64,000 nucleotides of DNA from an uncultured Chthoniobacter sp. (GCA_964609925.1 CAZSUJ010000004.1:9534-73533), one strand, 5' to 3'; counted from the first letter of the stretch, positions 1,865 through 48,749 are shown. A program made the numbers and translations. The notes: generated from the letters alone by a model not told the origin.

Positions 1865-1880
1865 GCATCGCCGTCCGGAC

Positions 1881-7433: not shown

Positions 7434-7552
7434 CAAGGCACCTCCCGAGTGTCATTGAACGAGGGGTCTATTCCTGAGGTCCAATCTTCTGGCATCTTCT
7501 TGGCGGTAAGTTGCCTCCCCCCATGCCGGCCCCTCCCGATACCACCCGACGC

Positions 7553-10500: not shown

Positions 10501-10966
10501 TGTCACGGCCGCAAACATCCTCGGCACCTCGCCGGCGTCCGCGGTTGTCGTGGCGACCACGATGCATCCGATGTCCTCGCTTGCAGCGTGGAACTCCGAG
10601 TATCTCGCCAGCCTGCCGCCGCAGGATCAGGCCAACACGGCGGACCCGGACCGTGACCGGATCCTGAACATTCTCGAATACGCCCACGCCAGCAGCCCGA
10701 CCCAGCCCGGCGCGAACCCCTTCCAGATCGGACCGCCGGTCGCGCAGAGCGTGACCATCCAGTTCCCTTGGAACTGGCGGGCAACGGACATCACCTGGCG
10801 CGTGCGCGGCGGGACCAATCTGGCCAGCATGTCGGCCTGGTCGGTTGTCACTCCCACGAGCGTGCAAACCAACCGCAGCGGGGATGTGGATGTCATCCGC
10901 ATGACGTTCCCGTGCGGCGTCATCCCGTGCCGGTTCTTCGTGCTCGAGGTTTTGCCTGCGCCCTGA
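7553..10966 (+). CDS. Secreted multidomain glycoside hydrolase: 2x F5/8-type-C (CBM32-like), ricin-B, GH128-like (Glyco_hydro_cc) catalytic core, ricin-B, Fn3, C-terminal TSP3-like module
   Basis: The ATG at 7553 gives the signal MTARVCSRTLAAVLASAALVPVVMA. Two discoidin-like domains (...VDGIAGNFHSFRS..., ...AFDGYIDNRSRWL...). Ricin-like QxW repeats (EWQLL, QDWRML, TQLWNT). Clan GH-A core motifs YNPMQWG, FMGFNEPD, DHTAVHWY, PIWLTEFS. Fn3 with SWAPVDAADSYAIER. The tail is ...DPDRDRILNILEYA...CRFFVLEVLPAP. Confidence 0.75.
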   Translation: MTARVCSRTLAAVLASAALVPVVMAQRVNVAKYQTVTASSTSSTYRPDFAVDGIAGNFHSFRSSGAFWLEVSYPAPIAIASAHVYLGLLEGSTTQVLSNFRFQYHDGAGWLDIPGSVVTGNTLAERSVIFSQAVTATRFRLLSNDASGSRTVRELAFFPPNIVGNVEQGQPLGTDVNLNLAYKRPATASSHQIVNTNGAGYPKNAFDGYIDNRSRWLIQPTNISGTNVYLSGEFLEVDLLATNLIGSAHVYSGIMSTNRTSSSPIPDFELQYLSGTNWLVIPGTSVAGNTNPSLVVPFATNVATSRVRLVTTSATPARLQELLLFPPRTGGYPVGQEVINAAPSTNTWERLSDSFYRVRNAGPDLRIGLVSGAVVNVPADANNPQRTEWQLLLNYRDGTYRVRNAESGLCLALARDLNGQISTSNNTPVVAEQYTGLPHQDWRMLYANATNFSLANAYSGLVIQPSGSSWSSGTPLVVSTVNTSNVTQLWNTSFRRHYPKKGIAGTLNPNPFNTNITYHRDFFDRLGGGSWSYVWGRPFNSNFPYLDHNHVYNPMQWGNFSWTHGSAQGPMENLHRELQSNPKPVYFMGFNEPDKTEQGFITVEEAVMRWPRFEARDVPLVSPVPADTFSEWSTNFFSQAEDNGYRVDHTAVHWYAAPSASSLITNVLWKAYTNYGNRPIWLTEFSVVPWGVTNTNTAWTEKDNFDFLAEFMWRAEGISWIKRYSLFCFTTGGSTNNPNYTYAPRSDTFNADGSLTPFGQLYAGWDGVTNVVTNRAYHLHAFGSYQRGRNPGGTSAPTAVSPSNNIAGTQWTLFPATTTTNTNTFRIISTLDGRPLRTTNGTNVSLGTNGETGAAVEWRLAADQNGLQFIQHPASGNRRLHLASNSSTLTMVASNNTTDFSEWRFVRPAVSETAAPPTSPTGVTANGGVASVVVSWAPVDAADSYAIERLDPVQLTWSNVVTGLTQTAWTNNALPGNTTNSYRVTAANILGTSPASAVVVATTMHPMSSLAAWNSEYLASLPPQDQANTADPDRDRILNILEYAHASSPTQPGANPFQIGPPVAQSVTIQFPWNWRATDITWRVRGGTNLASMSAWSVVTPTSVQTNRSGDVDVIRMTFPCGVIPCRFFVLEVLPAP
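10571..10963 (+). other. Copy A of the recurrent TSP3-like + beta-rich module (C-terminal)
   Basis: SSLAAWNSEY...ADPDRDRILNILEYAHASSP...MSAWSVV...CRFFVLEVLPAP-stop. Confidence 0.6.
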
Positions 10967-10996
10967 GGCGGAAGCGCTATCGACCGCGCAAGGCGC

Positions 10997-12280
10997 TCAG
11001 AAATTCACGCCGGTGAAGAATCCCGCGATGAAGCCGTCACTCACCTCCGGTCCGCCCGCGGGCTGGATGATGCATTGGACGAAGGGCTGCAGGAATGCCC
11101 AGCCATTGATCTGCACTCGGTAGCCTCCCTCGACCACCATCGTCCCCGTGCGATTGGAACTCCGGCTGTCGCGGCCACCGGCGACAGCCACCTGCGCGAA
11201 GTCGGCGCTCCGCCCAGGCGCAGGGCCTTGGTAAACCAGCCCGCCCTGAGCGTAGAGCGGCCACCGGTTGTTGTAGGGTGGCGCGAAGCTGACCATGCTG
11301 AAGAGACGCAAGCCTTCCTCAGCCGAGCCGGGTTCTCGGAAGAGCATCTGGTCGGCTTGCCAGTAGAACCCGTAGCGGCTCCCGCCGTCATCGTTGCCCT
11401 GCCCGTAGAAATAGCCGCCGAAGGCGTATTTCCCCGGTAGCTTCCCCTCGCCCACCAAGGGCGTGAAGCCGGTCTCGCCCATGAAGAACTCCCCGTTGTT
11501 CGCGGGATCGTGAGCGTCGCCTTGCATCATCAGCCCGTGGTTTTCCGCGAGCGTCCCCTCGGGATAGCTCATGAACAAGCCGACCTTCGTGTATTGCCAG
11601 TCGAGCGGCTTGACCTCCACCGTGCCGCCCCAAGTTGAAAAACCCGACGAGAACGGGATGTTCCCACCGAGGCCTTTCGCGCTCTGGATGGCGGCGTTGA
11701 GGAAGTTGAGGGAGAGCGGTTGGTTCAGAAACTCGCGCACCGGACGCAGCCAGCCTCCCGACAACGCGAGCAAGCCCTTGCGTCCGCCGAGCCCCGACGT
11801 GCTATAGCGCAGTCCGCAGGCTGCGAGACGCCAATCCACGCCGGTCTCGTAAGGTGAAGGGTTGAACATCCCAGCGGCCCGCACGGCCTCGTTGGGATTG
11901 TCCGCAGACGCGGGATCACGCCAGCGGCCCTCGATGAAGCCGTCCAACCCGTCGAGGAGCCGGGTGCCCAGAACTTCGTCGAAATCCACCACCGCTCCGA
12001 AGGCGAGCTCTTGGTCGAAGAAACCGGCCGCTCCCTCCTCGCTCGCGACAACTCCATAGAATCCCCCGCGCCAGCGCCCCTCGAACTCGATCCCGCCACT
12101 CGACAAAGCTTCGCGCGCGCCGAACCAGTCCCCTGTCATCTGCCGCCCGTTCCACCACCGGGGAAGCGCCGCGGGAGCCGCCGGGCTCCCGGCCCGGCTC
12201 GCGCTTGCGCACACGATCCAGACGATCAAGACCGCCGCCCGCCGCCAGATGTCCGTTCGATACCTCGACTTTGTGCCCAT
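10997..12280 (-). CDS. OprB-family carbohydrate-selective porin
   Basis: The ATG at 12280 gives MGTKSRYRTDIWRRAAVLIVWIVCASA. The OprB-type N-terminus is MTGDWFGAREALSSGGIEFEG. The sequence has an alternating beta-strand character and ends in FFTGVNF (C-terminal Phe of an outer-membrane barrel). Confidence 0.75.
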   Translation of the reverse strand: MGTKSRYRTDIWRRAAVLIVWIVCASASRAGSPAAPAALPRWWNGRQMTGDWFGAREALSSGGIEFEGRWRGGFYGVVASEEGAAGFFDQELAFGAVVDFDEVLGTRLLDGLDGFIEGRWRDPASADNPNEAVRAAGMFNPSPYETGVDWRLAACGLRYSTSGLGGRKGLLALSGGWLRPVREFLNQPLSLNFLNAAIQSAKGLGGNIPFSSGFSTWGGTVEVKPLDWQYTKVGLFMSYPEGTLAENHGLMMQGDAHDPANNGEFFMGETGFTPLVGEGKLPGKYAFGGYFYGQGNDDGGSRYGFYWQADQMLFREPGSAEEGLRLFSMVSFAPPYNNRWPLYAQGGLVYQGPAPGRSADFAQVAVAGGRDSRSSNRTGTMVVEGGYRVQINGWAFLQPFVQCIIQPAGGPEVSDGFIAGFFTGVNF

Positions 12281-12418
12281 CAATACCGCCCCGGGGGGAG
12301 CAGCGCTGGCCTCCCGTGCGAAGAACGTCACTGGAGCGTGCCAACGGGGCGCAATCTATTAGCTCACCTAATACATGGCAAGCGCAAGAATCCCCGGCAG
12401 GACGAAGTCCAGGGCTTA

Positions 12419-15400
12419 TCAGGGCACGTTGAAGACGACCTTGTGCGTCAGCATCCGCTTCGGCGCGATGGCGAGCGGGGTCGGCCCGGTCACGGGCGAA
12501 GCACCGCGGCTGCCGTCGGGATTCAGCCGATAGAAGGAAGTGTAGCGCGTTTCCCAACCGGGATTGAAGGCCACGAACGTCGTCTCGACGCTCGTCGGGC
12601 TGAGCCGTTTGGTGAACGTGGCGGTGAGGACGATGGACGAGTTCGCATCGGCGCCGCCGGCGTCCTTGGCCCGCGCAACGTAGGTCCAGTCGAGGTCGCC
12701 GTAGTCTTTGAAGCTCGAAAGAAACGTCAGCACGCTCGTCGAAAGGATGGAAGGATTGCGCGCCGCGAACTCACCGGGGGCGGCAGTCGTGGTTACCCAA
12801 CTCGACCACAGGCGATCGATGTAGGGCTGGACGGCGGGCGTGTTCGGCGTGGTCCCGGTCATGGGGAATGGCTGGTCACCGGGGTTGTAAGGCACGCCGG
12901 CCATGGCCGCGGTCATGCTCATGGAGAGCCATTCGGCAGGCTGGAAAAGCGCGGAATTCCGGGCGTCCGTCCACTCCTGCCGCATGGTCGTTCCGGCCCA
13001 GCGGCGCATGTAGGTCGTATCACGGGCCATACCGAGGGTCCACGCGGTGGGCGGGTAGGCTTGGATGAAGCGGGAACCGGTCGGGAAGGCATAGAAGAAG
13101 TTGTTCAGCGTGACTTCGGCCTTCTTCGTCAGTGACTGCCCCGCGCTGGCCTTTCCGCCGAAAGCCTCGGGCGACTCGTAGAACGCCAGCGGACTGGCCT
13201 CGACGTAGCCCGTGTTGACCGGCCATCCGGCGTTGTTGCCGTTGTTGATCACCTGACCCGAGTCGATCGTCGTGACCGGGACCCACGAGTGCAGGTTGAG
13301 CGGCGAGTTCGCCAAGTTGTAGTTCTTGTCGAGGAAGTAGGCCTCCCCAGCCGCGAGGTTCGAGGTGAACAGGTAGATACCGAGGTCGAGCACGGCTTTG
13401 CGGTCGGTGGCCGCGCCCCAAAGGATGGCCGCGGACCACGCTTGGATTCCCTCGAACACGGAATTCTCGTTCTCGCCATTGTATTTGTCGCTCAGGGTGC
13501 CGTAAGCGCCCCAGTAGCCGAGCGGATTGGTCGTGTCCAAAACCGCCGTGGTGCTCCCCGGCATCGCCCCGCTGGCCCACGGGTGTCCGGTGAACTGGTC
13601 GAAGAACGCGAACTTCTGGTAGCTCATCCGCGCGTCCTTGTAGAGGCTGGCATCCAACGCGGCGTTGTCGGGATCGTAAGCCAGCGTCATGAGCAACTGG
13701 TCAATCGCCGTGCCCATCTGGCTTTGGGAAACCCAGAGGTCAGCCGGTTTGGTGTTGATGTTGGGCTCCCACGCGCGGTCGAAGATGCCGGCGAGGGCGG
13801 CCGAGCTGAGGTAATAGCCGTAGAAGTAGTGCTGGTCGTTCCACTGGTCGGACACGCCGAAGCCGCTCCACAGCATGCCCTTTTCCCACTTCGAAAGGCC
13901 GGTCTTTGTCGCGTTCTGCACGGGCGAGACCGTAGCCGGGTTTTGCACCGAGCTGACGACACCCCAAGCGGGCTGCGTGGCCGTCGGGTTGATCACGATG
14001 CGGCCGGTGCCCTCGTCGTATTGCGAGTAGTAGGCCATGTTCCACAGATTGGCCAAGGACTGCGGCGAGGGATTGTTCTCGGAGGGCGGGTCCAAGAAGA
14101 GGAGGCTGATGGCGCGCTGCATGCCCTGCACGGAACTCTTGAGCGCGTCGTTCATCCCGCCGAAGGGATTGTTCTGGGCGAAAACCGGGAACTCGTAGGA
14201 GTTGGCCGGGGTCTTGGCCGCGTTCAAGGCGTAGGAAGTGATGTCGACATTCGGGTAATTCGCGGCGTTGGTCGCGACTGACTGCTGGAGGTTGAAGACA
14301 TCGCCGAGGAAGTTGGCGGCGGCCCCGAACTGGTTGCCCAAACCGTAGCCGTCCGGCGCGGAAGAACCGAGGAACGCGCCGTTGAAAGGCGCGAGGCCCT
14401 GACTGGTGAGCTTCGTATATTGGGCGATGATCGAATTATAGACGACCTCATCCACACCGGTGGTCTGGGGTGCGACCTGGCCACGGTAGAAGAAGGCCGG
14501 CTGGACAATGCGGGGGAAAGGCGTAAGCGTAACGCACCAAGTCAAGGCGGGCGGACTGTCCTTTGTGGCCACGCCCTCGGTCCCGGGGATGTATCTGGCT
14601 GGCGCCGCACCCGAGGGAGGCGGATTCTTGTTGAAGCTGGCAACCGAGCCGTTGGACAGGACGGCAACGAATCTCGCGGGGAATCCTTTCGGGTTGTGCA
14701 CGGAGACGGGGTCGGGATTGCCCGAGCCCGACCAGTTGGTGGCCACCGGCACCACGCTGAGGCTCGAGTTGTAGCCGCTGCCGGGTGCGGTGACGTTGAT
14801 CGCCGTGATTCGTCCGTCCGTCACCACGACATCAGCTTGGGCGGGCGATGTGGGAAGAGGGTCTCCTTGGTTGAACCACAACTTCAAGCTGGGCAGGTAG
14901 TTGCTCCCAGAGCGCAGGATGCGCACCGCCTTGACCCCGCCGTTGGTATCGAGCACGGGCTGCAAGGCGGCGTCGAAGCCGAGGCCGCCGAAGATCGCGT
15001 ATTCCAAGGGATCGTAGGTCAGGCCCGCACCCGCATTCGAGATGATCAGGTTGGTCGCCTCGATGATACCATTGGTCGGGATGGTGAAACCAATGACGGG
15101 AGCGACCACGTTCGTGACCGCGGGATCTGAAGGGTCCTTGGCCAGAAAGCTGACCTGCGTCTCGGAATCGTAACCCGGGACCAGCGGCGAGGTAATGTCG
15201 GCCCCATTGACGGAATAGGTGGCGTAAACCCGCGCCACGGCGTTGGTGGTCGGGGAACCGCCGACGAAGACGACATCCTTCGGTGAGTTGATGATGAAAT
15301 CCGAAGGAACACCGTCGCCCAGAACCACATTGGCGACCCTGCTGCCATTGAAGAACGTCTTCAGGCCCACCGTCTTGGGCGGCACCGAGTCGTCCGTGAA

Positions 15401-18400
15401 GGAGGCGGTGAGCGTGTTGGTGGCAGCATAGTTGCCTTGGTTGATGATCGCCGCCTGGAAGGTGCCCGGAATCTTCGTCATCCTCGCGGTGGCCGTCTGG
15501 GCGTTCGTGCTGTTTGTCCCCGGTGGGATGGACACGGTCACAACCGGCGGGTTGCCATCCACCGAAGGGTAGGAGCCCGCGCTGCCGGTTCCGCCGTAGG
15601 GCGGGTCGATCTGGAAGATGTTGCCGGGCTTCACGACTTCGAACTGGGCGCCTGTGCCGGTGCCGAAGAGGCTCACGTTGATGCTGTTGGTGTTCGTGGG
15701 GGAGAAATCGAAGCCCGCCCCGCCCTCAACCACGTTGACCAGACCCGGCAGCATCGCGCCGGTGTTTCCGTCAAAATTCGGCACGATGATCGGAGGATCG
15801 ATGTTTTGGCCGCCCTGGGTGGCCGTCATGACCGACGAATAGCCACTCCCCTTGTCGAGCATGAAGATCGCGAGCACCTTGCCGCCGCCGACCTGCGCGT
15901 AGGCCTTGGCCTGCCGGCCGCCGGCCGCGGTCGGAGGATCGATGGTGACGCTGACGGTCGCCGGGGGAATGCCGTCGGGATAAGACTGACCCTTGCTGAC
16001 CACATCGACCTGCTGGACCTCCCCCCGGTAGGCATCGACGAGAGCGACGGCGGTGGCGCCGTTGCCCTTGTTCGAACTATCCACGATGGCGACCTGCGGC
16101 GCCGCCGTGATCTTGGTGTAGTTGGTGCCGACATCGGTGATGATGATGCCCGGGATGCCGGTCTGGGTAACACGGCGGGAGTAGTCCGGAGGGGGAAGGC
16201 TCGGGAGGAAATTCTGGAACGGATAGGCCACGGTGAAGGAGTCCGTGATGACGGGCTTGAGGTTCCCGCGCAGGCTCCAGTAGTTCCAACGCGAGGCGGT
16301 GGTTGGCGTGGTGCGATTGGCGTTGGGGGGTGCGCTTGCGGGGATGGGGAAATCGCGACCGTAGGAACGCAGCGGGCTCCACACGACCTCGGGGCGCGCG
16401 GCCTTGGTCAAATCGGGGCCGAGCGTGATCGGTTGGTATTGATGCGGGTTGAGAGCGATCACGGTCTGCCGTGAATCCGCGGTCATGCCGGCTGCCGCCG
16501 GACGCCCGGCCGCAGCGTAAGGATTGCGCACATCGACACGGAAAGTCGTCTGAGACTCGGTCATGTTGTCCACCGTGTAGTCGATGCTCGTCGACGTGGG
16601 GAAATTGAAGGCGTATTGGCCGAGCGACGACGCCCAGTCGCGCGCCGCCTGGTCCATGATGCGGCGGCTGTCGGCGGGGACGCCAGTGTGGTAGTAGCGC
16701 ATTGGCGGGACGTTCGCGACGACGAACCAGTTCTTCGCGCGCGGTTGGACGAACTCGAGGAAGAAGAAGGGGTTGCCCTGTGCGTCGGTGCCGTTGTTGA
16801 AGCCCGGGGCGTTGGCGGGCGGCCCGAGTTTGACCGGACGAACGGTGTCCGTGCGGTAGAAGACGGCGGTGTAGGTGTGATTGTTCTGCCCGGGCGCGTT
16901 GATCGTGTTGCCGGCCTTGTTTTTGTAGGGTCCGGGCGGGGGATTGAAGCCGCCGGGCTGCTTCGACGGGGTGTCGAAATACCATGGCGGAACCTCCTGA
17001 TACCATTGGTTGGGATTCACGTGGTTGCCGTAGAGCAGCACGAACTGCACGCCGCTGACCCCGGGAACACTCCACGGTCCGCCGGCCACCATGCCCGCGC
17101 CGGTGCCGGTATTATTGCTGATCGCGCCGTTCGTGTTGGCGCGGATGAGATTGTAGAAGGTCGTGTAGCGGGCGTTGTTGACCTCGCACCACGCGTAGGG
17201 CAGCCCCTGCCCCACCGTCATCTTGAGGTAGTTCCCCTTGCCCGGCTGGTTGAAGGGCGTGCGCTGGTAGCGGTTGGCCGCGTAGTAGTTCGTGGCCCGC
17301 AGGCTCGCCGCCTCATAGATTATGTCCGCATCGAAATCCCCGACGCGATCGACCTTTAGCGAGAAGGGAGTCTGGTCCTCGGCTGAAGCGCCACGATCCC
17401 ACACCGGGTAAGGAAACGGATCATTCGTCCCGCCGGGCCGCAGGTTCCATGCGCCGGGTTGCAGGACTTCGTCCGGACGCAGATTGCCCGGCACCACCAC
17501 CGTGGTCTCCAGGGGTCGCATGGCGAGGTAAAGCCACGCCTGATGCCACGAGACCGGCACGCTGGAGGCAGTCAGCTTGTCACCGTATTGGTAGAAGAAG
17601 GGGTTGACGGAGGAGAGGTTGACCCCGCGCACGATGGTCTTGTCCTGCCAATAGTCGGTGTTGAGCGGAAAATTCTTCATCGGCTTCGATTGGTAGCCGA
17701 AGGGACCCGGAGCCCAGTTGTAATTGACGATGAAGGGATTCAGGAAAAGCGGCTGCTGGTCCACGCGAACAGGGTTCCATGTGCCGGCGGAGCGGCCGCC
17801 GTCGGGGGCGTTGGTATTCTGCGGCCACTGGTAATTGAAATAATCCCAATCCGAGCCGGTGTAGTTGCCGTAGTCGCCCGGCGCGTGGATACCGGGCTTG
17901 ATGCCGGGCGGCGGCGTGCCATCCGCCCAGAGGAACCAGCCGAGCCAGGAACGCAGCGGCGGACGCACGCCATTGGTCGAGTAGTCCTGCAGGAGATCGG
18001 CGGTGAAGCTGCCGCGGGCGGCACCAACGGCACTCGGATACTTCGATGTGTCGGGGGTCGGATCAGTGGAACTGACGGGTGCCGCTTCCGTGCGCACGCT
18101 GACATTGGGCAACGGCGGCAAGCCAGCCCAAGCGCTGCCGACGTTCGTGCCGATATGGAACACGGTGTCCCCCGGTCCGCCGGCGGAGGAAAACCGCGGC
18201 AGCGCCCCGGCCGATGCGTCCGCCGGGAGGCGCACCTCGAGGGTGAAGAAGCGCATCGGGTTGAGGTCCACAGGATGGCCGTAAACGGTGTAGCCATCAC
18301 CTTCCTCGAGAACAACGGGCGTGCCATTGGCCGGTTCCCACTGGCCCAGAACAGCCGAACTCATCACGCGCACCTGCGCGCTGCCGACACTCTGGTCGCT

Positions 18401-20923: not shown

Positions 20924-21319
20924 AGCTTGGCAGGGAAAACATCGCGACCAGAGTTGTCAACACCCCTTGTGAATAACTTTGAACCGAACTCACGAGGCTC
21001 CCGGAGCCGTGATGCTGCGGAAGGCACACGATTTAGTGCCCGAGGCACGGTTGTAGCTGGTTGAATCCGACGGTGGCGACACATGTTGACATAAACAGCT
21101 CGATAGCCGGCGAATTTCTCGATTTTTTTGACCCACACACATCAGCACAAGTTGCGCGTTCATGCTTCTGAGGTATTCTTGAACAGAGCCCGACCAAAAC
21201 GGGTCTGAATCTTGTCATGTGTTGGCTCCCCCTTGGTATTTCAGCCACCAGCAGAAGTTTGCCGGGTGCAGCCCTGCATCTGTTGAGCAGGTCGCTGTTG
21301 GCATGATCGCGCTACGACT
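20924..21319. promoter_or_regulatory. Divergent intergenic/promoter region between the two giant genes
   Basis: 396 bp with no convincing ORF. It is locally less GC-rich and holds several TTGAC-type hexamers (e.g. acatgTTGACAtaaac). No promoter can be pinned down by eye. Confidence 0.3.
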
Positions 21320-26173: not shown

Positions 26174-26196
26174 CGACGCAAGCGCCCGACCAAGAG

Positions 26197-27684: not shown

Positions 27685-27690
27685 CGGCTC

Positions 27691-31253: not shown

Positions 31254-31291
31254 TTCCTGTTACCCAGTGAAATGTTCCCCATTCCTGGCCC

Positions 31292-32323: not shown

Positions 32324-32325
32324 GA

Positions 32326-33846: not shown

Positions 33847-33948
33847 GAAGCTCCGCGGCCGCAGGATTGGGCGGTGCGGTCCAGCCCCCTCAACGATCCC
33901 TCCGAGGGAGCGAGGCAGGACCGGGCCACTTACCCCCAAAGGCTCTAT

Positions 33949-36900: not shown

Positions 36901-36954
36901 GAATGCGGTGGCTGCGAGGGAGAGGATCGTTGCTGCGGGGAGGAGGAGTTTCAT
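33949..36954 (-). CDS. PATR (autotransporter-associated beta-strand repeat) surface protein without barrel, ending in the TSP3-like module
   Basis: Signal MKLLLPAATILSLAATAFA. PATR head TWTNITAGSASGSWQTAANWQ...IGNLVFGD. About 800 aa of G/T/N-rich repeats containing LTKAGAGTLVL-type units. The tail is ADPDGDGFDNGEEF...RSFFDVDAVVP. Confidence 0.8.
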   Translation of the reverse strand: MKLLLPAATILSLAATAFAQTTATWTNITAGSASGSWQTAANWQASVIGGGSNNTANFSTLDITNDSTVTLNAPVTIGNLVFGDTATNTAAGWTLGNGGNTNNTLTLAGSSPIVTVNTLGTNKSVTLDAQVFGTAGLVKAGPGRLILSNSSNGYTGSISNYLTQSNFGIPLFATVVESGRLVLGSGTAAGAGNIAVGTNNPGTNTAFLDLNGNTVTNNIGLGGNVYLYNGNTNSSATVNGDLWIRNFGRIGSLTGDGAGTVIVNGKIVFNVSSQTLFVGTGGALTVLNGTVSHTNSNGIITAQGTLRANDGVNIATNSTLRLGNGGVIGGIFESGASITRSIGDGAGLISVGYTNSTSANIGFSAFGAPITVALGGTSSPTALTWGQTNFLQGSSTLVLNAATANSTLTFANSLDLGGSNRTIAVNAATAIVNGGLTNGALTKAGAGTLVLAGSNSLTSPTTISGGTLRTTLESFGGDVTNNGVFYLDQATNADFTGVITGTGALVKDGVGTLTLSAVNGYTGNTTVSSGALRLANSNSLGSTSNAVTVASGATLDLNGQNNTERVVTIAGNGPGGAGAVVNNSTSTATRLRLALASDASVGGTARIDIIGSGTLVNGGTNTLTKTGTNVVAINPGTVIVGQINVDQGTLTSVNNAGSLGDSAFGTLVASNATLTFFNNTTNALTNNENITLAGGATLATTTATSRNVLGGSIMISGGTATVRVETNGTGTLQINQGLTGGGGLNKTSGGTLELRGTNTHAGNTTITDGAVTLAEDALLTFTVGGNGTNNRVSGTGTLNANGDFQFDLSAASTNSGDSWTIVGTNVVANYGTNFLVNGFSGAGGNWTNTTNGATYVFAQSTGVLTVQSGGTNAYDSWVSFWQGTYPGFTNTAPAADPDGDGFDNGEEFSFDGNPAVGSPALLSATKSGANAEVSWVERNTGVAYSVNATTNLSAGPWTNAAVTVANSADQSGISQTNDYTRKAFAVPATNRSFFDVDAVVP
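33952..34344 (-). other. Copy D of the recurrent TSP3-like + beta-rich module (C-terminal)
   Basis: TNAYDSWVSFWQG...ADPDGDGFDNGEEFSFDGNP...LSAGPWTNA...RSFFDVDAVVP-stop. Confidence 0.6.
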
Positions 36955-36977
36955 GGAGATGGAGGGTTCAGGATTTC

Positions 36978-37010
36978 ATATCGACATGTTCTATCTGAAT
37001 TTATCAATAC
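36978..37010. promoter_or_regulatory. Operator/promoter-like inverted repeat upstream of the PATR gene
   Basis: ATATCGAC (36978-36985) - 17 nt - ATCAATAC (37003-37010) inside an AT-rich 85-nt gap. It resembles the perfect repeat at 49593-49624, matching 6/8 and 7/8 per half-site. Confidence 0.35.
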
Positions 37011-37039
37011 TATTTTGCGATGTGGCGTTTTTCAACTGT

Positions 37040-38170
37040 TCATTTGGGTTCGGGAAGGACGCGCTGCCCGCTGGCCGGGTCGAAGAGGTGAACGCGGTTG
37101 GACTGGATGCAGAAGCGCTGTTTGGAGCCGTCCCCGCGGTGATCGGCCTCGGCGTGGCTGCGGCTGATGAGTGTGTGCTGTCCGGTGTTGAGGTAAAAGT
37201 AGGTTTCGGCCCCCATTGGCTCTATGAGCTCCACGAGCGCCTCAAACGATCCGGCGCGGGGCTCGGTGCCTCCGCGCGCCGGTTCGCAGTGCTCGGGGCG
37301 GACGCCGAGCGTGACTTCCTTTCCGGCGAGGGCGGCGTAGCCGGGCGGGTTGCCAAGTTCCACCCGGACCGGGCCGCCGCGGGCTTCGCGGAACACGAGT
37401 CCGGCGGCTGCGGCCTCGACCTGCCCTTCAATGAAATTCATCGGCGGGCTGCCGAGAAATCCAGCCACGAACAGATTTACCGGCTCGTGGTAAATGCGCA
37501 GAGGTTCGTTCGCCTGCTGGATGACACCGTCTTTCATCACCACGATGCGGGTGCCCATGGTCATGGCCTCCACCTGATCGTGGGTCACGTAGATCATCGT
37601 CGCCTGCAGTTTCTGGTGCAGCTTGGTGATTTCCGTCCGCATCTGGACGCGCATTTTGGCGTCAAGGTTCGAGAGCGGTTCGTCAAAAAGGAAGACCTTG
37701 GGCTGCCGGACGATGGCACGCCCGACCGCGACCCGCTGCCGCTGACCGCCGCTGAGCGCCTTGGGCTTGCGGTCGAGCAGCGCCTCGATACCGAGAACTG
37801 CGGCCGCATCCATCACCCGCTGCCGGATCTCCGCGCGGGGGAAACGTCGCAACTTCAGTCCGAATGCCATGTTGTCGAAGACCGACATGTGCGGATAGAG
37901 CGCGTAATTCTGGAACACCATGGCGATGTCACGGTCCTTGGGCGGCACGTCGTTGACCACCCGGCCGTCGATGGAAACTTCGCCCCGCGAAATTTCCTCC
38001 AGGCCGGCGATCATGCGCAGGGTCGTCGACTTGCCGCAGCCGGACGGCCCGACGAAGACAACGAACTCGCGGTCGGTGATATCGAGGTTGAAATCGCGGA
38101 CGGCGGTGACGCCCTCACCTTTCTCGCCCTCATAGATCTTGCAGACGTTACGCAGGCTGACTTGGGACAT
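37040..38170 (-). CDS. Carbohydrate ABC transporter ATP-binding protein (MalK/UgpC/MsmX type)
   Basis: Walker [10 protein letters not shown], signature LSGGQRQR, Walker [10 protein letters not shown], and a C-terminal TOBE-like regulatory domain. It overlaps the upstream gene by 23 nt. Confidence 0.9.
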
Positions 38171-39836
38171 GGGCGGGGCTTTCGATGGTGTTGTTCTCGA
38201 CGACAGCGGCCGGGCAGCCTTCTACGTCGAAGGGCGGCGCGCCGGCGTGCTGCGCCGGGTAGTTGGCGGAAGGAAGGATGCGGTTGCCGCGGATGACGAG
38301 ACCGCTGACACCGCGGGCGCGGATGATGCGTGGATCGAAGGCGCGGAAGAGGTTGTCCTCGATGCGCACGTTGCGGTGGTAGTCGCTACCGGGCTGGTGC
38401 TCCTCCTTGACGCCCGGGCTGATCTGGATCTGCGCCTTGGCCCAGATGCCATATTTGCAGTCCTCGAATGTGTTGCGCCGGATGAGGATGTCGCGCACGG
38501 CACCGCTTTCGAACCAGTGGTTCGCGTCGCCTTCGATGAGGATGGCGGCTCCGGCGGTGTGGAATGTGTTCTCCTCGACAACGACACGTCCGGGCACGGA
38601 GAGAAGGAATCCGCGGGCGCGGTTGCCGCGGCAGCGGCAGTGGCGGATCGTGACATCGGCCGACCAGGTCAGGTTGCCCATGGCGTCCCCCACCCGCGGC
38701 GGAACAGGAGGAGCCTCCTCGAGGCCAATGCGCAGAAACTCGCTGTTGAGGCGTTGCACGGAAGCAGCGCGTGCCGTGTGCTTCGTGGCCAAAGTGTCGC
38801 GATCGACCAGTTCAAGCAGTTCTCCGGATTCGGCGAAACCGACACCCCGCTGCTGGCGGTGGGACAGGCGGACCTCGAACTCAGCGGGACCGAGGACCCG
38901 CGTGATCTGGGTGTAGAGGCCGTGGACATTCGTGGCGTCGTCCAGTTGGTTCTCGAACACGCAATCTTCCAAGACAACGGACCCCCGGCAGTTCACGAAA
39001 TGGGTCGCGTCGGCCGTGGTCGAAACCATGCGCGAGCCGTCTTCCGGTGGCGCAACCCGCAACCTTTCGACGCGGATGCCTTCGCACCGCTGGGCGATCA
39101 GACCCATCGCGCCCGCGTGGTGGATCGTGACGTCTTGGATCTCCAGCCGGCGGCTGTTCTGCGCGGCGACGGCGGGGAAATCGCGGCGCTCGCTGACCAA
39201 AGCGAGCACGTTGCCGGGTTGCGGACGCGGCTCGCGGAAGTCCGCGTGCAAACGGACCCGCCGCGGACCGGTCTCCTCGGCACGGCAGCGGCGGCCGATG
39301 TTGAAATTGTCAAAGACTTGGAAAGCCGTCTCGCGGCGGACCGAGTCGAATTCGAGGATATTGCGGATCACGAAGGTCTCCGGCGACGGGCCGAAAAGGA
39401 GGCGTCCGTCGCGCACCTCGAACGGGAACCCCTCCGGAACCTCGATCTCCACGCCGCTTTCGTCGCTCTCGCGCACGATCCCCTCACCGTGGAAGGGAAC
39501 GGCCCAGTCCACTCGAAAACCCGAGAGCCGCACCCCGTCGCAACGGTCGAGGTGGAACGGAATCAGGCCGCCGTGGAAAACGAACTCCGCACCGTCCGCC
39601 TCCACGGCGAAGTCGCGGCGATCCTCGAGGAGGAAGACTATGCGCTTGAGCCCCTCATCGTTGTTCGAGATGAAGAGATACTTCTCTTCCGCGCGGTCGG
39701 GGTGAAAGTCGTAGCGCCCGGGCGCGAAGCGGAGCCCGGCACAATCCTTGCTTTCGAGTGCCTCGCGCACGAGAGGCGTGAAGTCGGAGGCGCCGGGATG
39801 GAATTCGTGGAGTTTATTCATAATGTGAATTTTCAA
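38148..39836 (-). CDS. Cytoplasmic right-handed beta-helix glycosidase-like protein (GH110-like, tentative)
   Basis: No signal peptide. [74 protein letters not shown], and later PbH1-type turns ([27 protein letters not shown]). The GH110 label rests on my recollection of that family's N-terminal beta-barrel plus beta-helix layout. Confidence 0.55.
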
Positions 39837-39861
39837 TTGTGCGTGTCATCCGTGACGCTTT

Positions 39862-41220
39862 TCATGATCCAAAGCCCTGCTTGGAGCGCAGCGCTTCGGC
39901 TCTGACCCGCAGCTGCGGTTCCCGCTCGATGTTGCGCTGGATCGCGCGGTTGACCTCGGCGGCGAGTTGCCGCGCAGCCTCCTCGGGCGTGACCACCCGG
40001 TTTTCCACGCGTCCGAGCATCTCGATGATCCAGCGCTGGACTTGCGCCGCATCGACAAAAGGGCTCGTGTCGGGCGGTTGCGCATCGCGGATCGCATCGA
40101 GAAAAACCTGATGGAACGTCTCATCCGGCACCGCCTTGTTGACGAGGGCCGCGCCGTCGGGCGCCATCTCCGGATTGGGGGGCAGGGAATCGCCATCCTC
40201 GATGATCTTGCGGCCGTATTCGGGGGTGGCAAGGTAGGAGAGGAAGGCCACCGCCAGTTCGGGGTGCCGGCTGCGGGCATTGACCGCAACTCCGCGCGTC
40301 CGCGTGTAGCCCCGCGAAGGCTGACCGGGCAGCCGCGGCAGCCGAACGGCGGCCAGATTCCCCTGCAGTTCTGGGAAATTTGCCGCCTGCACGGTGAACC
40401 AACGACCGATCATGATCATGGCCGCTTCACCCGAAGAGAACCAGTTGATGCCTCCCGATCCCCAGCCTCCCTGGCTCGACATGGCCACCGACTGCTCCGG
40501 CGTGGGCAACACGCGGTGCTTGAACATGAGGTCGTGGTAATGCTGGAACGCGGCCACAGCCTCGGGCGAGTCGAGCAGGCAGGTCATTCCGTCCTCGCTG
40601 AAATACCGCGCTCCGTGCGTGACCAGCAGGTCGGCAAAAAGATCCGGCGGAGACCAATTGGCGACCGGAATATGCGTTTTTCCACTCTTCGAAGGTGTCT
40701 CCGCAATGGCGCGCCCCGCAGCAACAAAATCGTCCCACGTCCAGTCGGCCTGCGGATAAGGCACCCCGTGGTCATCGAAGATCGCCTTGTTGTAGAGCAC
40801 CGCCTGCACGTTGACGTTGGCCGGGAAGCGATATTGCCGGCCGTCCACGAAAAGGGCGTGACGGATGGCGGGAAAAGTCTTCGACGCATCGAACCCCTGC
40901 TTCGCGGCCACGTCGGTGAGATCCAGAAGCAACCCGGCCTGCGCCATGCTCTGCATGAGGGTCTCCGGAATGTCCATGAGGTCCGGGCCGACGCCGGTGG
41001 CGCATTGCACGAGCAGTTTGGTGGCGTCACCCGTTTCTGTGGCCAAACGCACTCCTGGATGGGCCGCCGTGAAACCGGCCGTCTGACGGTCGCGCGCGGG
41101 ATTCGGGTCGGTGGCCCAACGGAGCACCACCTCGTTTCCGTCGCTGGAGCGTAAGGTGCCCATGGCGATGGCATAGAGGCCGAGGAAGACGGCGAACGCA
41201 GCGAGGAAGACGTATTTCAC
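39862..41220 (-). CDS. ABC transporter extracellular solute-binding protein (family 1, sugar)
   Basis: The GTG at 41220 overlaps the upstream stop (GTGA). It gives (M)KYVFLAAFAVFLGLYAIA as anchor/signal, followed by a typical SBP_bac_1-like body (LRWATDPNP..., GPDLMDI..., YNKAIFDDHGVPYP..., GRWF). The rest of ORF 39862..41745 is discarded. Confidence 0.8.
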   Translation of the reverse strand: MKYVFLAAFAVFLGLYAIAMGTLRSSDGNEVVLRWATDPNPARDRQTAGFTAAHPGVRLATETGDATKLLVQCATGVGPDLMDIPETLMQSMAQAGLLLDLTDVAAKQGFDASKTFPAIRHALFVDGRQYRFPANVNVQAVLYNKAIFDDHGVPYPQADWTWDDFVAAGRAIAETPSKSGKTHIPVANWSPPDLFADLLVTHGARYFSEDGMTCLLDSPEAVAAFQHYHDLMFKHRVLPTPEQSVAMSSQGGWGSGGINWFSSGEAAMIMIGRWFTVQAANFPELQGNLAAVRLPRLPGQPSRGYTRTRGVAVNARSRHPELAVAFLSYLATPEYGRKIIEDGDSLPPNPEMAPDGAALVNKAVPDETFHQVFLDAIRDAQPPDTSPFVDAAQVQRWIIEMLGRVENRVVTPEEAARQLAAEVNRAIQRNIEREPQLRVRAEALRSKQGFGS

Positions 41221-42074
41221 CCCTTGACCCCCCCGAGTTGCAGGCCTTTCACGAGGAACTTCTGGAACATCACGAAAATGATGATCAGCGGCACGATGTT
41301 CATCACCGTGGCCGCCATGATCAGCTCGGTCTGGCGCCCGTAGGAGCTGTCGAGTCGCAGCATGCCCACAGGCATGGTGAAAAGCTGCTCGTCCTGCAGC
41401 ATGACCAACGGCCAGAAAAACGACTGGTAAGCCCCGAGGAAGGTGAGGATGCAGAGTGCAATCAAGCCTGGCCGCGACAGCGGCACGATCACGTCCCAGA
41501 AGATCCGCCAGTGCCCGGCCCCGTCGATCGTGGCCGCCTCGTCGAGCGAGGGCGGGATCGAAAGCATGAACTGCCGCAGCAGGAACGTTCCGAAGGCGCT
41601 GAAGGCTGCGGGAATGATCAAGCCGTGGTAGGTGTTGACAAAACCGAACGTCACCATGAGCTGGAAATTCGGGATCATGGTGACCACGCCGGGGATCATC
41701 ATGGTGCCGAGGTAGAGGAGGAACACCTTGTCGCGACCGGGCCACTGGATGCGCGAGAACGCGTAGGCGGCCATGGCGCTGGTAAGCACCTGGAAGAGCG
41801 TGATGCCCATGGCCACGAAGATGCTGTTGAAATACCAGCGGCCGAATTTGACACCGAGAAAGACGCCGGTCACCGGGTCGGGCTTGAGATCGAGGACGAC
41901 GGGGTAGTTCAGCGCTGTCGGTTCGCGCGGCACGATGTGCGCCTGCTCGACTTCGGCGCGGGTCTTGAACGACGCACAGACCATCCAGACGAAGGGCGCC
42001 GAGAGCGCGAAGCCGATGGCGCAGAGCAGAAAGAAGCGGGGGATGGAGCGTGCGGGGAGCATGGTCTCAGACAT
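41217..42074 (-). CDS. Carbohydrate ABC transporter permease (MalG/UgpE-like)
   Basis: Six hydrophobic segments and an EAA-type loop LDEAATIDGAGHWRIFWDVIVPLSRPG. There is an 8-nt overlap with the upstream permease. Confidence 0.85.
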   Translation of the reverse strand: MSETMLPARSIPRFFLLCAIGFALSAPFVWMVCASFKTRAEVEQAHIVPREPTALNYPVVLDLKPDPVTGVFLGVKFGRWYFNSIFVAMGITLFQVLTSAMAAYAFSRIQWPGRDKVFLLYLGTMMIPGVVTMIPNFQLMVTFGFVNTYHGLIIPAAFSAFGTFLLRQFMLSIPPSLDEAATIDGAGHWRIFWDVIVPLSRPGLIALCILTFLGAYQSFFWPLVMLQDEQLFTMPVGMLRLDSSYGRQTELIMAATVMNIVPLIIIFVMFQKFLVKGLQLGGVKG

Positions 42075-43503
42075 CCAGGCTGCGGCCGAAGCGCCAGTTG
42101 AAGGCGGTAATGGAGAAAAGCATGGCGAACAGGACCCAGGATACGGCGGCGGCGTAGCCGAAGTTCAGGTCCTGGAAGCCGACTGTGTAAATATAGTAGC
42201 TCAGCGTGGTGGTCGCCCCCGCCGGGCCGCCGCCGGTCATGACTCGCGCCTGCTCAAACCCGCCCTGCAATCCGCCGATGATCGACACGATCGAGATGAA
42301 GAAGGTCGTGGGCGCGAGCTGCGGCCAAGTGACATTGACAAAGCGCTGCCAGCGGTTGGCCCCGTCGATCTCCGCGGCCTCGGTGAGTTCGACCGGAACA
42401 TTCGACAACGCCGCGAGGTAAAGCAGCATGTTGGTGCCGCCGATGGCGGTCCAGAACCCCATGATCATGAGCGAGGGCTTGGCCAACTCGATGCTGGCCA
42501 GCCACTGCGGCAACTCCGATGCCTCGAGCCCCGTTAGGGCAGAGAGCATGGCATTGATCGGCCCGGTCTGCGGGTTGTAGAGCGCTTTCCACAGGATCAT
42601 GAGCGCCACTCCCGAGGTGAAGGCGGGCAGGTAGAAGATCGTCCGGAACGACACCACGTTGAACGCGAGGCCGAGCCCGGCGATGACCCACAAAACAGCA
42701 GCCAGCAACGCGGCATCGCGGAACCCCGCCGCCCAGAGCAGAGCCGCCAGTCCGAGTCCGCTGACCACGCAGAGCCCCGCAGCCGGCCAGGCCCGCCCCT
42801 TTTTCACCGGCAGAGAGTCATTCAACAGGATCGCCAAAACCAAGGAACCCGCCACGGAAAAAGGCAACGCGAGCATCATGTAAACGGTGTTGTAGAGATA
42901 ATGCCAAAACCGGGGGTCGTTCGCCTCGTAGGCGCTCCACATCGCGCTGTGCAAGAAGACGAGTCCGGCCGAACCCGCCACCACCGCCACGCCCGGCAGC
43001 AGGCCCGCCCGCGGCGCCGTTTCATGCTCGCCGGGCTTGTTGTCCCAGAGCATCCAGCCCAGCACCGAAAAAACCACGGCCACAATCAACAGGCTGTGGT
43101 GCGCGCCGGCCCCGACCGCTCCGGCGCCGATCGCCAGCGAAGCGACGAAGAACGATGCGGCGCCACCGCGACCGCAGCGCACGCCGCTCAGCCCCATCCA
43201 TACCGCCCCGATCACCCCGGCCAGCACAAGCAGCACGCTGCCGCAATAGGCGGCGATGACCAGCGGCGCGCCCGCGCCGATCGCCGAAAAGCCGAGCGCA
43301 TCCTCGAAGTTCCGCAGCCCGACAAACTCACGGGGCACGGACGGCTTCAAAGTCCAGTTGGTGAAGGCCATTCCCAGCGAGAGGACCACGGGGAACAAGG
43401 TGAACAGGAAGAAGCCCCCGAAATTCGGCAGCAGAAAACCGAAGACCGCAGCCGGCGGGCCCTTGGGGCGCCGCGGGCGAACTGGTCTGCCGCTGGTGCT
43501 CAT
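42067..43503 (-). CDS. Carbohydrate ABC transporter permease (MalF/UgpA-like) with two extra hydrophobic insertions
   Basis: The ATG at 43503 overlaps the upstream stop (ATGA). EAA loop LTEAAEIDGANRWQRFVNVTWPQLAP. The canonical FVGLRNFEDALGF and NDPRFWHYLYNT blocks are separated by ~120 hydrophobic residues. Confidence 0.8.
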   Translation of the reverse strand: MSTSGRPVRPRRPKGPPAAVFGFLLPNFGGFFLFTLFPVVLSLGMAFTNWTLKPSVPREFVGLRNFEDALGFSAIGAGAPLVIAAYCGSVLLVLAGVIGAVWMGLSGVRCGRGGAASFFVASLAIGAGAVGAGAHHSLLIVAVVFSVLGWMLWDNKPGEHETAPRAGLLPGVAVVAGSAGLVFLHSAMWSAYEANDPRFWHYLYNTVYMMLALPFSVAGSLVLAILLNDSLPVKKGRAWPAAGLCVVSGLGLAALLWAAGFRDAALLAAVLWVIAGLGLAFNVVSFRTIFYLPAFTSGVALMILWKALYNPQTGPINAMLSALTGLEASELPQWLASIELAKPSLMIMGFWTAIGGTNMLLYLAALSNVPVELTEAAEIDGANRWQRFVNVTWPQLAPTTFFISIVSIIGGLQGGFEQARVMTGGGPAGATTTLSYYIYTVGFQDLNFGYAAAVSWVLFAMLFSITAFNWRFGRSLDV

Positions 43504-46500
43504 GGCGCAACCTCCGGCTCGATTTTGATCTTCATCACCGCTTGCACCCCGTTGGCTCCCCAAGATCCGATCTCCCAAGGGTAGAGCGACTTGGCCGGGT
43601 CGGGGGACACCACGTTGTTGTCCTCGATGAGTCCGCGGATCGAAGTCAGGAGCAGGCCCGGGGACGCCCCGCCGTCGATACGGTTATTGCGCAAGGTGAT
43701 GTTGCTGAAAGCTCCGGCCGGCGAGATCGTCCCGTCCCCGCCGGCGGCGAGAACAGCGACGCCCATGCCGCCACCCTCGGTGATCAAGTTGTCAGCAATC
43801 ACAAGGTTGTCGGCCAGACCCGCTTCGAGCCACCAGTATTCCGGCGCGATGTAGACGGCGGTCATGCGCGCGCCCTCGATGTGGTTGCCCGTGATCTCGC
43901 CTTGGCCGGCCTTGACGAGAATGCCGCGCGAGCGGTTTTGTCCGACGTGGCAGTTGCGGATGATGAAGCCGCTGCCGATGGCGCCTGCATCGCAGATGAG
44001 GGTTCCGGGGACGATATCCCCCACGGCAGCGTCCAAGGTGACCAGAAAACCGTCCTCCATCGCCGTTCGGCCGAGGTCGCCATTGAACTTCTGCTCAAGG
44101 AGCATGGCGCGTTCCTCGGGAGTGGCCGGTCCGTCGTCGACGACGGAAACGACCCGGCGATTATCCGGCCTCAGCCCGCTCCTGGTGAAAAGTTGGACGT
44201 CGTCGCCGGGTTGCAGGGTCATGCCGGATTTCGCCAGCACGCGCAGGGCGGCCCCCTCCACGCGGGTGATGTAGTGAAAGTCGCCGTTGATCGCGATGGC
44301 GTCGTCGCCCATGTGGAAGGCCGAGCAACCGTCATAGACCGGCCCCCTCCGCGCGTTCTTCGAGTGGAACGCATCCGCGTTGAGCGAACGAAGCCGCCGG
44401 TGCTCCCGCGAGCGCAAATCGTCGGTCGGCTCCCGCCGCTCGACCCGGCATTTGATGTAGCGGGATCCCTCGCAGCCGTTCTCGAGAAAACCGAAGCTGT
44501 TGCTCGCGTGCAGAGTGACCCTCTCCATGACCAGCCCCTTGCTTCCGGTTGCGTAGATGGTGTGGGGCATGCTGCCGCCCGGCGCGTAACTCGTCTTGAT
44601 CACGGCAATGTCGCCGATCTGCTCGTTTGCGTAAGCCAGGTTGGACGATGACTTGGTCAATACGGCCCGCATGGGTCCACTTGGCTCGCACAGCGTGCTG
44701 TAATACGTCATGCGTCCGCGCAGGCTGCCGGTGGCGGGATCGAAAACTTCCACGGACCCGGTTGACGTTCCCGGCTCCGGGTAGCCCTCGAGAATTTCCA
44801 CCTCGAGGCGTGATGCGTCAGCCGAGATGGAGGTGATGCGCCCCTGCGTGAATGGCAAGGGGTCGTAGTCGATGGTCAGGCCGCGGATCGTGACATTCTC
44901 GCAGCCCTCGATGGTGATCGCCCGGGTAGTTTCCGTGCAGACCATCTCCACCTGATCGGCGATGATCTCGGTGTCCTTCACACCCCGCAGGAGGAGGTGC
45001 TGCCGGCTCGAGGGCCGGACCCGATAGCGGCCCGGCGGTATTACAATCCGTTTTTCGCCGGCCGCCACCCGCGTAGCGATGAACGTGGGCAACCACGCCG
45101 TGTCCTCCACCGGGGTCGGACCCGGCGTGGCAATGACCGTGCCGACCCGGTAGAATGCGGTGTCGGTCGCGGGGACAACGAATTCCTTGCGGTGGTAATC
45201 CGCCGGCATGGGGATGCCTTCCTGGTTGCGTGAATTGGAAATCGTCACGCCGGCGGTGACCCACGGGCCGGTGTTCAAGTTGGTCGTCGTTTGCACCAGA
45301 TAACTCACGCCGCCGGGCGGGTTGTTGCGCGCGATGAAGCTGAAGACCAGATTCTCACCGTTGCCCGTCGCGATTAGCACGGCTCCGTCCGCCGACGTTG
45401 GGTTGCCGCCGAAGGCGAACTCGGCTTCGTTGTTGAGAAGGTCTCCATCGGCGTTGTCCACGGCCGCGGTGCTTCTGAACCCCGCAGCCTCGCTCTGCCA
45501 AAGCCCGACCCAATAAGCGTAGTTGTTCGTCACGGGAGCCTGCACAACCCTCAAAACGCTGTTGGACTGGGCGAACACGTAGCTGATGCCGTTGGCTGCG
45601 TTCGTCCATTTGCCGTCGCCGCCATTGAAGCCGCGGACGAGAAAATTCGCGCCGTAGGTGTTGGTCAGATTTCCGGTCAGGATGGTCCAACTGTCGCCCA
45701 CGCGGGTCGAGGCACCGGTGAGGTCGAAATCGAACTCCCCATCGATGCTGGTTGCGCCTGTGCCGCCCAAGGTGTTGTTCGTGCCGTTGCCGCCGATGAG
45801 GAAGCGCAGCGAGCCTCCGGAAACGAGGTTGATGGCACCTTCCTCCACCAGGGTGTTGCCGGTGTGGCTGCTGTTTCCTCGCAACTCCAGTGTGCCGGAG
45901 CCGGTTTTGTTGAGATGACCGGCACCGGTGACGGCCCCGCCGAGAATCAAGGTGCCCGTGCCCCGGGGATCGACGCGCACCGAGGCAGTGCCCGGGCTCA
46001 AGGTGATGCTACCGTCGAGGATGTTGGGGCTGGTGGCAAGTGTGCCGGCCAGTTCAGCGCCGTCCGCGAGGGTGATGTCCTCGCGGTTGCTGATGGCCGA
46101 GCCGCTGCTGTTGAAGAACTGCAGACTGGCGTTGGAGGCAACAAGTGTGCCGAAGTTTGTGTCGCCGAGGGCGGTTCCGCTGTTGACCACGACCACAGCC
46201 CCCCGGTTGAGGAGGAGGCTGCCCATCGAGGTCACACCAGTATTGATGATGAACGAATTGGTTCCGACTTTGGTCAGGGTGTTGGTGCCGGCATCGATCA
46301 CCGTGCCGCCAAACGAGGTGTCGATCCGCGCCGTGCCGCCGAGCGACGCATTCGTGGCGAGGACGAGGCGAAGGCCCGTGGCGGAATTGGTGCCACGGTT
46401 GACCAGCGCGGCACTGCCGCCTACACCCCTGCCGCTGATTGTGACGGTCTCCCCGCCGATGTTGAAGCCGTTCAGATCCAAGGTTGCTCCGGCCTCAACC

Positions 46501-46847: not shown

Positions 46848-46935
46848 CTGCAGCAATCGAAGCGGACGATTTGCATGATGGCGCGCACAGGCGGAATTCT
46901 TCGTTGGCCTCCATGCGGGATTCACCGGGCGTCCC

Positions 46936-48741: not shown

Positions 48742-48749
48742 GAGCTGGC

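Follow-up and report, generated by a model that had tools for sequence, protein, structure and literature searches.

The stretch of DNA analysed here, 64,000 nucleotides from an uncultured Chthoniobacter sp. (CAZSUJ010000004.1:9534-73533; the window in what follows, with a G+C content of 63.5%), encodes five copies of a protein module that belongs to a large domain family without a Pfam-A or NCBIfam model. The module combines a Ca loop of known type with a generic sandwich; its five homologous copies, of 117-139 residues each, lie inside five long open reading frames (ORFs) within 64 kb. A first-pass annotation of this DNA had proposed the five recurring copies, and all of them are present on the strands then given, with every quoted motif found in the translations. 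The coordinates of that annotation were in frame for copies A, D and E but not for the other two (copy B would begin at 18604 rather than 18603, and copy C at 25826 or 25829 rather than 25827), and the module boundaries were re-set in this analysis. There is no sixth copy in the window: the next best match of a hidden Markov model (HMM) of the five copies to the six-frame translation has E = 0.34.

Copy A (10562-10963, +) forms residues 1018-1151 of the ORF 7511-10966 (+) and lies at its exact C-terminus, with the stop codon at 10964-10966. Its Ca loop, DPDRDRILNILE, is encoded at 10643-10678 (+) and its last strand, RFFVLEVLPAP, at 10931-10963 (+). The host, of 1151 residues, consists of a signal peptide, a ricin-type lectin domain, a Glyco_hydro_cc (PF11790) catalytic core and the module (Pfam). 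Copy B (18221-18613, -) is internal, comprising residues 771-901 of the 2834-residue product of the ORF 12419-20923 (-), and contains the loop DPDADGFANALE (18506-18541, -) and the last strand RFFTLEVRLPA (18221-18253, -); the host begins with about ten repeats of about 58 residues, followed by a PEP-CTERM motif, a former signal peptide, the module and a region of about 1900 residues resembling glycoside hydrolase family 81 (GH81). Copy C (25820-26170, +) supplies residues 1501-1617, the exact C-terminus, of the ORF 21320-26173 (+), with the loop DNDKDGVANLLE at 25886-25921 (+) and the last strand KFARLKVVMAP at 26138-26170 (+); its host (1617 residues) carries a reprolysin-like metallopeptidase, PKD and CarboxypepD_reg domains and PATR repeats before the module (Pfam). 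Copy D (33952-34353, -) likewise forms an exact C-terminus, residues 868-1001 of the ORF 33949-36954 (-), and has the loop DPDGDGFDNGEE (34234-34269, -) and the last strand SFFDVDAVVP (33952-33981, -); in this protein of 1001 residues it follows a signal peptide and a PATR beta-helix (Pfam, NCBIfam). Copy E (45123-45539, -), residues 485-623 of the ORF 43500-46991 (-), is internal and sits at a fusion junction between a PATR region and a Beta_helix half (43500-45122); its loop, NADGDLLNNEAE (45420-45455, -), is shifted by one residue and has no Gly at position 6, and its last strand is AFYRVGTVIATP (45123-45158, -).

The ORF translations thus agree with the proposed placement, A, C and D forming exact C-termini and B and E being internal, and in the three terminal copies the stop codon directly follows the last Pro. 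An N-terminal signal peptide is visible in all five hosts, and in each the module abuts the preceding domain with no flexible linker. The cargo identified by Pfam is as unrelated as had been claimed: Glyco_hydro_cc with a ricin lectin (A), a GH81 C-terminal domain (B), a reprolysin-like peptidase with PKD and PATR (C), PATR (D), and PATR with Beta_helix (E). This supports the view of a single recurring, non-catalytic module.

Homology between the copies extends well behind the Ca loop. All-against-all BLASTP aligned D with E at 46% identity over 133 residues, A with B at 30% over 128, A with D at 25% over 113, and C with E at 26% over 74 residues that lie wholly behind the loop. The five-copy HMM recovers only A-E in the window, at E-values of 1e-35 to 1e-57 obtained with the copies themselves in the profile. 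A beta-only profile was built from database relatives only, with everything through the exit helix removed, no window sequences included and the subfamily of the scored copy left out. Against this profile A scored 33.3, B 20.3, C 33.6, D 43.0 and E 45.7 bits, while the best of 500 shuffled sequences per copy reached 5-12 bits (6.8 at most for B). Because these scores lie far above those of the shuffles, the five segments are, judged by sequence comparison, homologous over their full length and not just in the DxDxDG loop; the first-pass annotation would have been overturned by a failure to align beyond that short motif, and instead the beta parts alone reach 20-46 bits against shuffles of at most 12. 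Comparison of the beta parts alone with hhalign was only suggestive (P about 5e-5 to 7e-5) and uninformative for B, and iterative searches started from the isolated beta part of A or of B gained no further sequences. Both the full-length and the beta-only profile of the new family match all five copies. Between them these represent four subfamilies, and each is more closely related to sequences of other genomes than to anything else in the window: copy C is 80% identical to a copy in a Chthoniobacterales metagenome-assembled genome (MAG), and copy D shares 61-64% identity with P0001 and P0003. The five copies are not recent local duplicates.

The anatomy of the module is best seen in an alignment of 29 sequences, from which the conservation figures are taken. 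The first element, an amphipathic helix at the N-terminal end whose Trp hardly varies, leads into one 12-residue loop per module, D-x-D-x-D-G-x-x-N-x-x-E, which is followed by an exit helix with the motif N.LEYA.G..P. In the beta part, of about 80 residues, one Leu is invariant and one Trp nearly so (L..G.W), and a final strand, F.RL.V, closes it. D31 and N37 do not vary, and D29, D33, E40, W90 and F126 are at least 90% conserved; copies A and E have no Gly at loop position 6. AlphaFold2 models were obtained for copy D from this alignment (pLDDT 92.5, pTM 0.84) and for copy B from an independent alignment of N-terminal-type copies only (pLDDT 93.8, pTM 0.85). Both have the same order of helix, loop, helix and six to seven strands, and both place the Ca loop against a small beta-sandwich, in keeping with the description of the module as TSP3-like and beta-rich. 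The beta part, a confidently predicted sandwich, would resemble immunoglobulin (Ig) or fibronectin type III (FN3) domains. Foldseek comparison of the two models with the PDB returned weak, generic sandwich matches (cytokine-receptor FN3, CBM21 and Ig C1 domains), with best E-values of 3e-3 to 1.3e-2 and TM-scores of 0.36-0.43 over about 80-90 columns. A sequence profile search of the PDB gave EF-hand loops (calmodulin) as top, non-significant matches.

Two observations concern the limits of the module. Copies of the D/E type are preceded by a conserved host segment of about 90 residues (in the window at about 34354-34620, -, and about 45540-45800, -) with the consensus IGG.GTN..L.G.G....G.F.F.L..ASTN....WT.V......YG..F.V.GF...GG.WT..TNGV.Y.F.QS...L.V, which makes the C-terminal unit of the D/E subfamily larger than the module. 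A distant metagenomic PATR protein of 1851 residues (L014, 150-5702, +) ends in ...TYYVLASTNVALPLSQW...PRRFFIIQLP*; this tail matches the module's beta part in register, at a weak 11 bits, has neither the Trp helix nor the Ca loop, and may be a sandwich-only variant.

The possibility that the module was already a named family can be set aside for the libraries searched. No model of Pfam-A (2025 copy) or NCBIfam (June 2026) spans it, whether in isolated modules at E<=10, in whole window proteins or in 70 full-length relatives, and no account of the domain was found in the full-text literature searched. A profile search that took in all 1.84 billion cluster representatives matched 46,877 of them at E<=1e-3, a count that includes proteins matching solely through arrays of TSP3-like loops, 13,365 at E<=1e-10 and 84 at E<=1e-30. 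All matches with an organism name, metagenomic proteins included, come from Verrucomicrobiota, such names being attached to a small minority of the matches. Genome-level taxonomy covers the C-type subfamily, which has twelve genome loci in Chthoniobacterales, Akkermansiaceae, Luteolibacter and Verrucomicrobiales MAGs, and orthologues of the GH81-like protein come from Puniceicoccus, Ruficoccus and Cerasicoccus. These named sources indicate that the family spans at least the classes Opitutia and Verrucomicrobiia.

Across the family the module lies overwhelmingly at the exact C-terminus, as the window had led the first-pass annotation to expect. Among the 150 best representatives, 125 have a full-length module, and in 119 of these (95%) a copy ends no more than 5 residues from the C-terminus; 33 of the 125 (26%) carry tandem arrays of two to five complete copies. 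Of the 298 module-bearing proteins in a wider set, just about five are without a terminal copy. The end point itself is narrowly fixed: counted on raw sequences of 279 proteins with a terminal copy, 205 stop 9-10 residues past the conserved Phe, and 169 (61%) end in Pro, whose background frequency is 4.9%; non-terminal copies mostly do not have that Pro. PATR repeats are the main cargo, being found by Pfam in 48 of 70 hosts, together with beta-propellers, cadherin-like, Ig-like, leucine-rich repeat (LRR) and fn3 domains and SASA esterases; the window adds a Glyco_hydro_cc enzyme, a giant GH81-like protein and a reprolysin-like peptidase. The NCBIfam repeat family 'T5SS/PEP-CTERM-associated repeat' matched one of the 70. 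Three proteins (P0079, P0223 and P0132) have three to five tandem modules and then a conserved tail of about 300 residues ending ...SYQP; they are candidates for scaffold-like proteins.

The PATR proteins of the window have alternative C-terminal tails, as can be seen from one gene at 53958-56423 (+), which gives no module match with the five-copy HMM and whose product ends in a PEP-CTERM motif, IPEPSTVLAALGLGGLMLWPTVRRLRGKRHQG, in the position that the module has in the other PATR proteins. A metagenome scan with the passenger region of host D for orthologues with swapped tails returned only two distant loci. In many bacteria PATR-type beta-helix proteins terminate in an autotransporter barrel. 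Together, the PEP-CTERM of this paralogue and the barrels of PATR-type proteins indicate that the module sits where surface-anchoring elements sit.

The two internal copies both lie in conserved fusions. In host B the PEP-CTERM motif that had been noted upstream of the module is detected by both Pfam (PF07589) and NCBIfam (TIGR02595) at 18689-18769 (-); it reads AVPEPST..., followed by a hydrophobic helix and RRRRR. Between it and the module lies a second hydrophobic segment, VKTLLLAAVGTCWMVGVAGASG (18608-18673, -), which corresponds to the signal peptide of stand-alone GH81-like orthologues and has no start codon (V751 is GTC). A search with the downstream 2,089 residues retrieved the window protein (P0326), three relatives of 73-84% identity that keep the fused layout, and about 30 stand-alone GH81-like orthologues of roughly 2,040-2,220 residues in which the module follows a signal peptide after 2-4 residues. 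It follows from these stand-alone proteins that the ancestral GH81-like protein bore the module at its mature N-terminus. In the lineage of host B an upstream PEP-CTERM protein was joined to it, and the old signal peptide is retained as the second hydrophobic stretch. The codon for residue 747, CAG, is a single step away from TAG; the reading frame passes through it and takes in the former signal peptide, then the module and lastly the GH81-like portion. The junction (18608-18769) implies a membrane helical hairpin, which would leave both halves of the protein outside. That copy B marks the start of a separate gene can be rejected: no start codon fits, V751 being GTC, and three relatives are fused as well.

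Host E was described as a visible gene fusion, and its beta-helix half (43500-45122, -) is 58% identical to residues 86-629 encoded by the neighbouring gene 46936-48831 (-). This identity marks E as a PATR-plus-module protein fused to a beta-helix paralogue minus its first 85 residues. A second example of this junction of PATR, module and beta-helix, in P0186, which belongs to a different cluster and assembly, shows the fusion to be real and conserved and is the ground for rejecting an assembly artefact.

Several known systems resemble the module in part. The loop resembles that of TSP3_bac (PF18884) or of an EF-hand, sharing D-x-D-x-D-G-x-x-N-x-x-E followed by a short helix and G..P, and TSP3_bac matches 3 of the 70 relatives. 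In contrast to TSP3_bac, the module has a single loop rather than an array, a preceding Trp helix and a sandwich of about 80 residues that lies outside that model, which matches neither the five modules at E<=10 nor the five whole proteins at E<=0.01. Dockerin type I (PF00404) is likewise a terminal, non-catalytic domain with a Ca2+ loop and helix, found on many enzymes, mostly at the C-terminus and sometimes, like the module, at the N-terminus. However, dockerins consist of a duplicated F-hand of about 70 residues, have no sandwich and usually follow a flexible linker, whereas each module has one Ca loop and gives no Pfam match to dockerin. No cohesin-like partner was identified, and no search across genomes was made for one. 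PEP-CTERM (PF07589/TIGR02595) shares the C-terminal position on window PATR proteins, as an alternative tail of beta-helix surface proteins, but it is a motif of about 25 residues with a transmembrane helix and a basic tail, whereas the module, 117-139 residues long, folds as a soluble domain and has no hydrophobic anchor.

The C-terminal domain (CTD) of the type IX secretion system (T9SS) of Bacteroidota (Por_Secre_tail, PF18962/TIGR04183) was the system of which the module had been thought reminiscent, and it is also a small Ig-like sandwich found at the exact C-terminus of unrelated exported cargo within one phylum. The analogy proves weak. The module has a Ca-loop and helix part that the CTD is without, and it is not a single, exclusively C-terminal copy: it is N-terminal in about 30 orthologues, tandem in 33 of 125 proteins and internal in a conserved fusion. 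No sequence match to the CTD was found with Pfam or NCBIfam in the modules or the 70 relatives, and none appears among the 50 best Foldseek matches listed for either model. T9SS is not known to occur in Verrucomicrobiota, and among the genes scanned in the 64-kb window there is no T9SS machinery (PorV, Sov, PorU and others).

One NCBIfam model touches the module without covering it. NF042425 (Amuc_1099 family pilus-like system protein, from the MUL2 locus of Akkermansia) is a 321-position profile of which positions of about 93-155 align with the Trp helix and the Ca loop; the sandwich lies outside the alignment. Amuc_1099 is itself described as uncharacterised (PMC13174399). The profile matches 9 of the 70 relatives, the multi-copy ones passing its 50-bit cut-off, and in the window it gives 17.8 bits for module B and 17.0 for D over 23-35 residues and no match to whole proteins. 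Membership of the Amuc_1099 family is rejected on the ground that just the Ca-loop region aligns. P0169, P0175 and P0197 exceed the cut-off via repeated Ca-loop matches only, and such multi-copy relatives would probably receive the name of this equivalog model in automatic annotation although they are not equivalogs.

The genes around the hosts resemble a polysaccharide-utilisation locus (254-6727, 27691-33939, 37040-43578 and 59236-62364). They encode five sulfatases, GH42, raffinose-synthase-like (GH36-type), acetyl-xylan-esterase-like and GH116-like proteins and an ATP-binding cassette (ABC) sugar transporter, and an OprB-type porin (10997-12331) is found between hosts A and B. Two small proteins with a prepilin-type N-terminal methylation motif, one of them with DUF1559, are encoded at 6690-7433 (+) and 48750-49571 (-), adjoining module-bearing or beta-helix genes.

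As to function, the reading tentatively preferred is that the module serves as a Ca2+-stabilised terminal tether or docking domain holding exported proteins at the cell envelope, although it is put somewhat short of an even chance. The module is a compact, self-contained and probably Ca2+-binding extracytoplasmic domain of protein termini. Its cargo would first be exported by Sec and then be held at the envelope through one common ligand, either a protein or a glycan, whether that cargo is a PATR beta-helix protein, a glycoside hydrolase, a protease, a propeller or a cadherin-like protein; the logic would be comparable to that of dockerin or SLH domains. On PATR proteins the module would take the place that the PEP-CTERM or the autotransporter barrel has in others. 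Placement at either end, repetition such as many binding domains show, unrelated exported cargo, the conserved Ca loop, the size of the family with its five copies in 64 kb here, and the Verrucomicrobiota origin of all named sources are consistent with such a role. From the N-terminal copies, the tandem arrays and the internal fusion, itself conserved, it is clear that the module needs no free C-terminus, which weakens a secretion signal of the T9SS-CTD kind and favours a binding or tethering domain. The targeting or cell-surface attachment role proposed in the first-pass annotation is accordingly plausible, given the signal peptides of all five hosts and the PATR paralogue with PEP-CTERM in the same position, but the likeness to a C-terminal sorting signal is weakened.

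Several points weigh against a tether at the envelope. Putative Ca2+ binding can be inferred from the loop motif only, and copies A and E are without the Gly at position 6 of that loop. In contrast to typical dockerins, no flexible linker precedes the module. The few genomic contexts read contain no conserved neighbouring gene, and organism names are attached to a small minority of the matches. The sandwich is generic (TM-scores of 0.36-0.43), and a glycan-binding or purely structural role would fit it equally well.

Glycan binding would make the module a lectin resembling a carbohydrate-binding module (CBM), whose Ca2+-stabilised sandwich would bind polysaccharide and direct enzymes and PATR proteins to their substrate and not to the cell. 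CBM21 starch-binding domains are among the best fold matches of both independent models, the module is borne by glycoside hydrolases in hosts A and B, genes for sulfatases, glycoside hydrolases, a porin and sugar ABC transporters abound in the window and in a related locus, and both tandem copies and placement at either terminus are typical of CBMs. The fold matches, however, are weak (E of at least 3e-3, TM about 0.4), cytokine-receptor FN3 and Ig domains match just as well, and no Pfam family, CBM families included, matches the sequence. PATR proteins are the most frequent bearers of the family, which is also attached to metallopeptidases and to LRR, cadherin-like and propeller proteins, and this range of cargo points to a common ligand rather than a substrate-specific one. 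Recognition of a substrate polysaccharide is considered unlikely.

A purely structural role is given the same low weight. Here a Ca2+-rigidified Ig-like domain with no specific ligand would end and protect exported multidomain proteins as an end-cap or spacer, for example by capping the beta-helix or by means of a final Pro that blocks C-terminal exoproteases. The direct abutment of the module on the preceding domain, the enrichment of the terminal Pro solely in end-located copies, the conserved PATR-host region of about 90 residues before D/E-type copies, the generic fold and the common use of Ig-like domains as spacers all agree with it. But a beta-helix cap leaves the non-helix cargo and the N-terminal placement in GH81-like proteins unexplained, and the strong conservation that distant subfamilies show in the Ca loop and on both faces of the last strand suggests a role beyond that of a spacer.

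It is improbable, finally, that the module is a C-terminal sorting or secretion signal recognised by a Verrucomicrobiota-specific outer-membrane translocon or sortase-like enzyme, and perhaps then cleaved off or linked covalently: the exact C-terminal copy in 95% of hosts, the fixed stop, the terminal Pro mostly missing from other copies, the passenger-type PATR cargo without an autotransporter barrel and the PEP-CTERM of the PATR paralogue at the same position would all suit such a signal, but a conserved and functional-looking module stands at the N-terminus of about 30 GH81-like orthologues, tandem arrays reach five copies, some with a further 300 residues behind them, the copy of E and P0186 is internal in a conserved fusion, there is no hydrophobic anchor, and no model of a T9SS CTD, PEP-CTERM or other sorting signal matches.

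Of the tether or docking domain a bolder version can be framed, in which the module would be the recognition or attachment handle of a Verrucomicrobiota-specific surface-display pathway and one envelope partner would capture thousands of Sec-exported proteins in a Ca2+-dependent manner, barrel-less PATR proteins included. This extension is regarded as doubtful; if it is true, the pathway would correspond in function to the T9SS-CTD or dockerin-cohesin systems and would explain surface decoration. Verrucomicrobiota are major degraders of polysaccharides in soil, water and the gut, and it is not understood how their enzymes and their very abundant PATR proteins without a barrel come to be placed on the cell or outside it. 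An HMM of the module would improve the annotation of protein tails that are now blank, and one unnamed domain ending roughly 10^4 protein clusters offers a concrete entry to surface display in Verrucomicrobiota.

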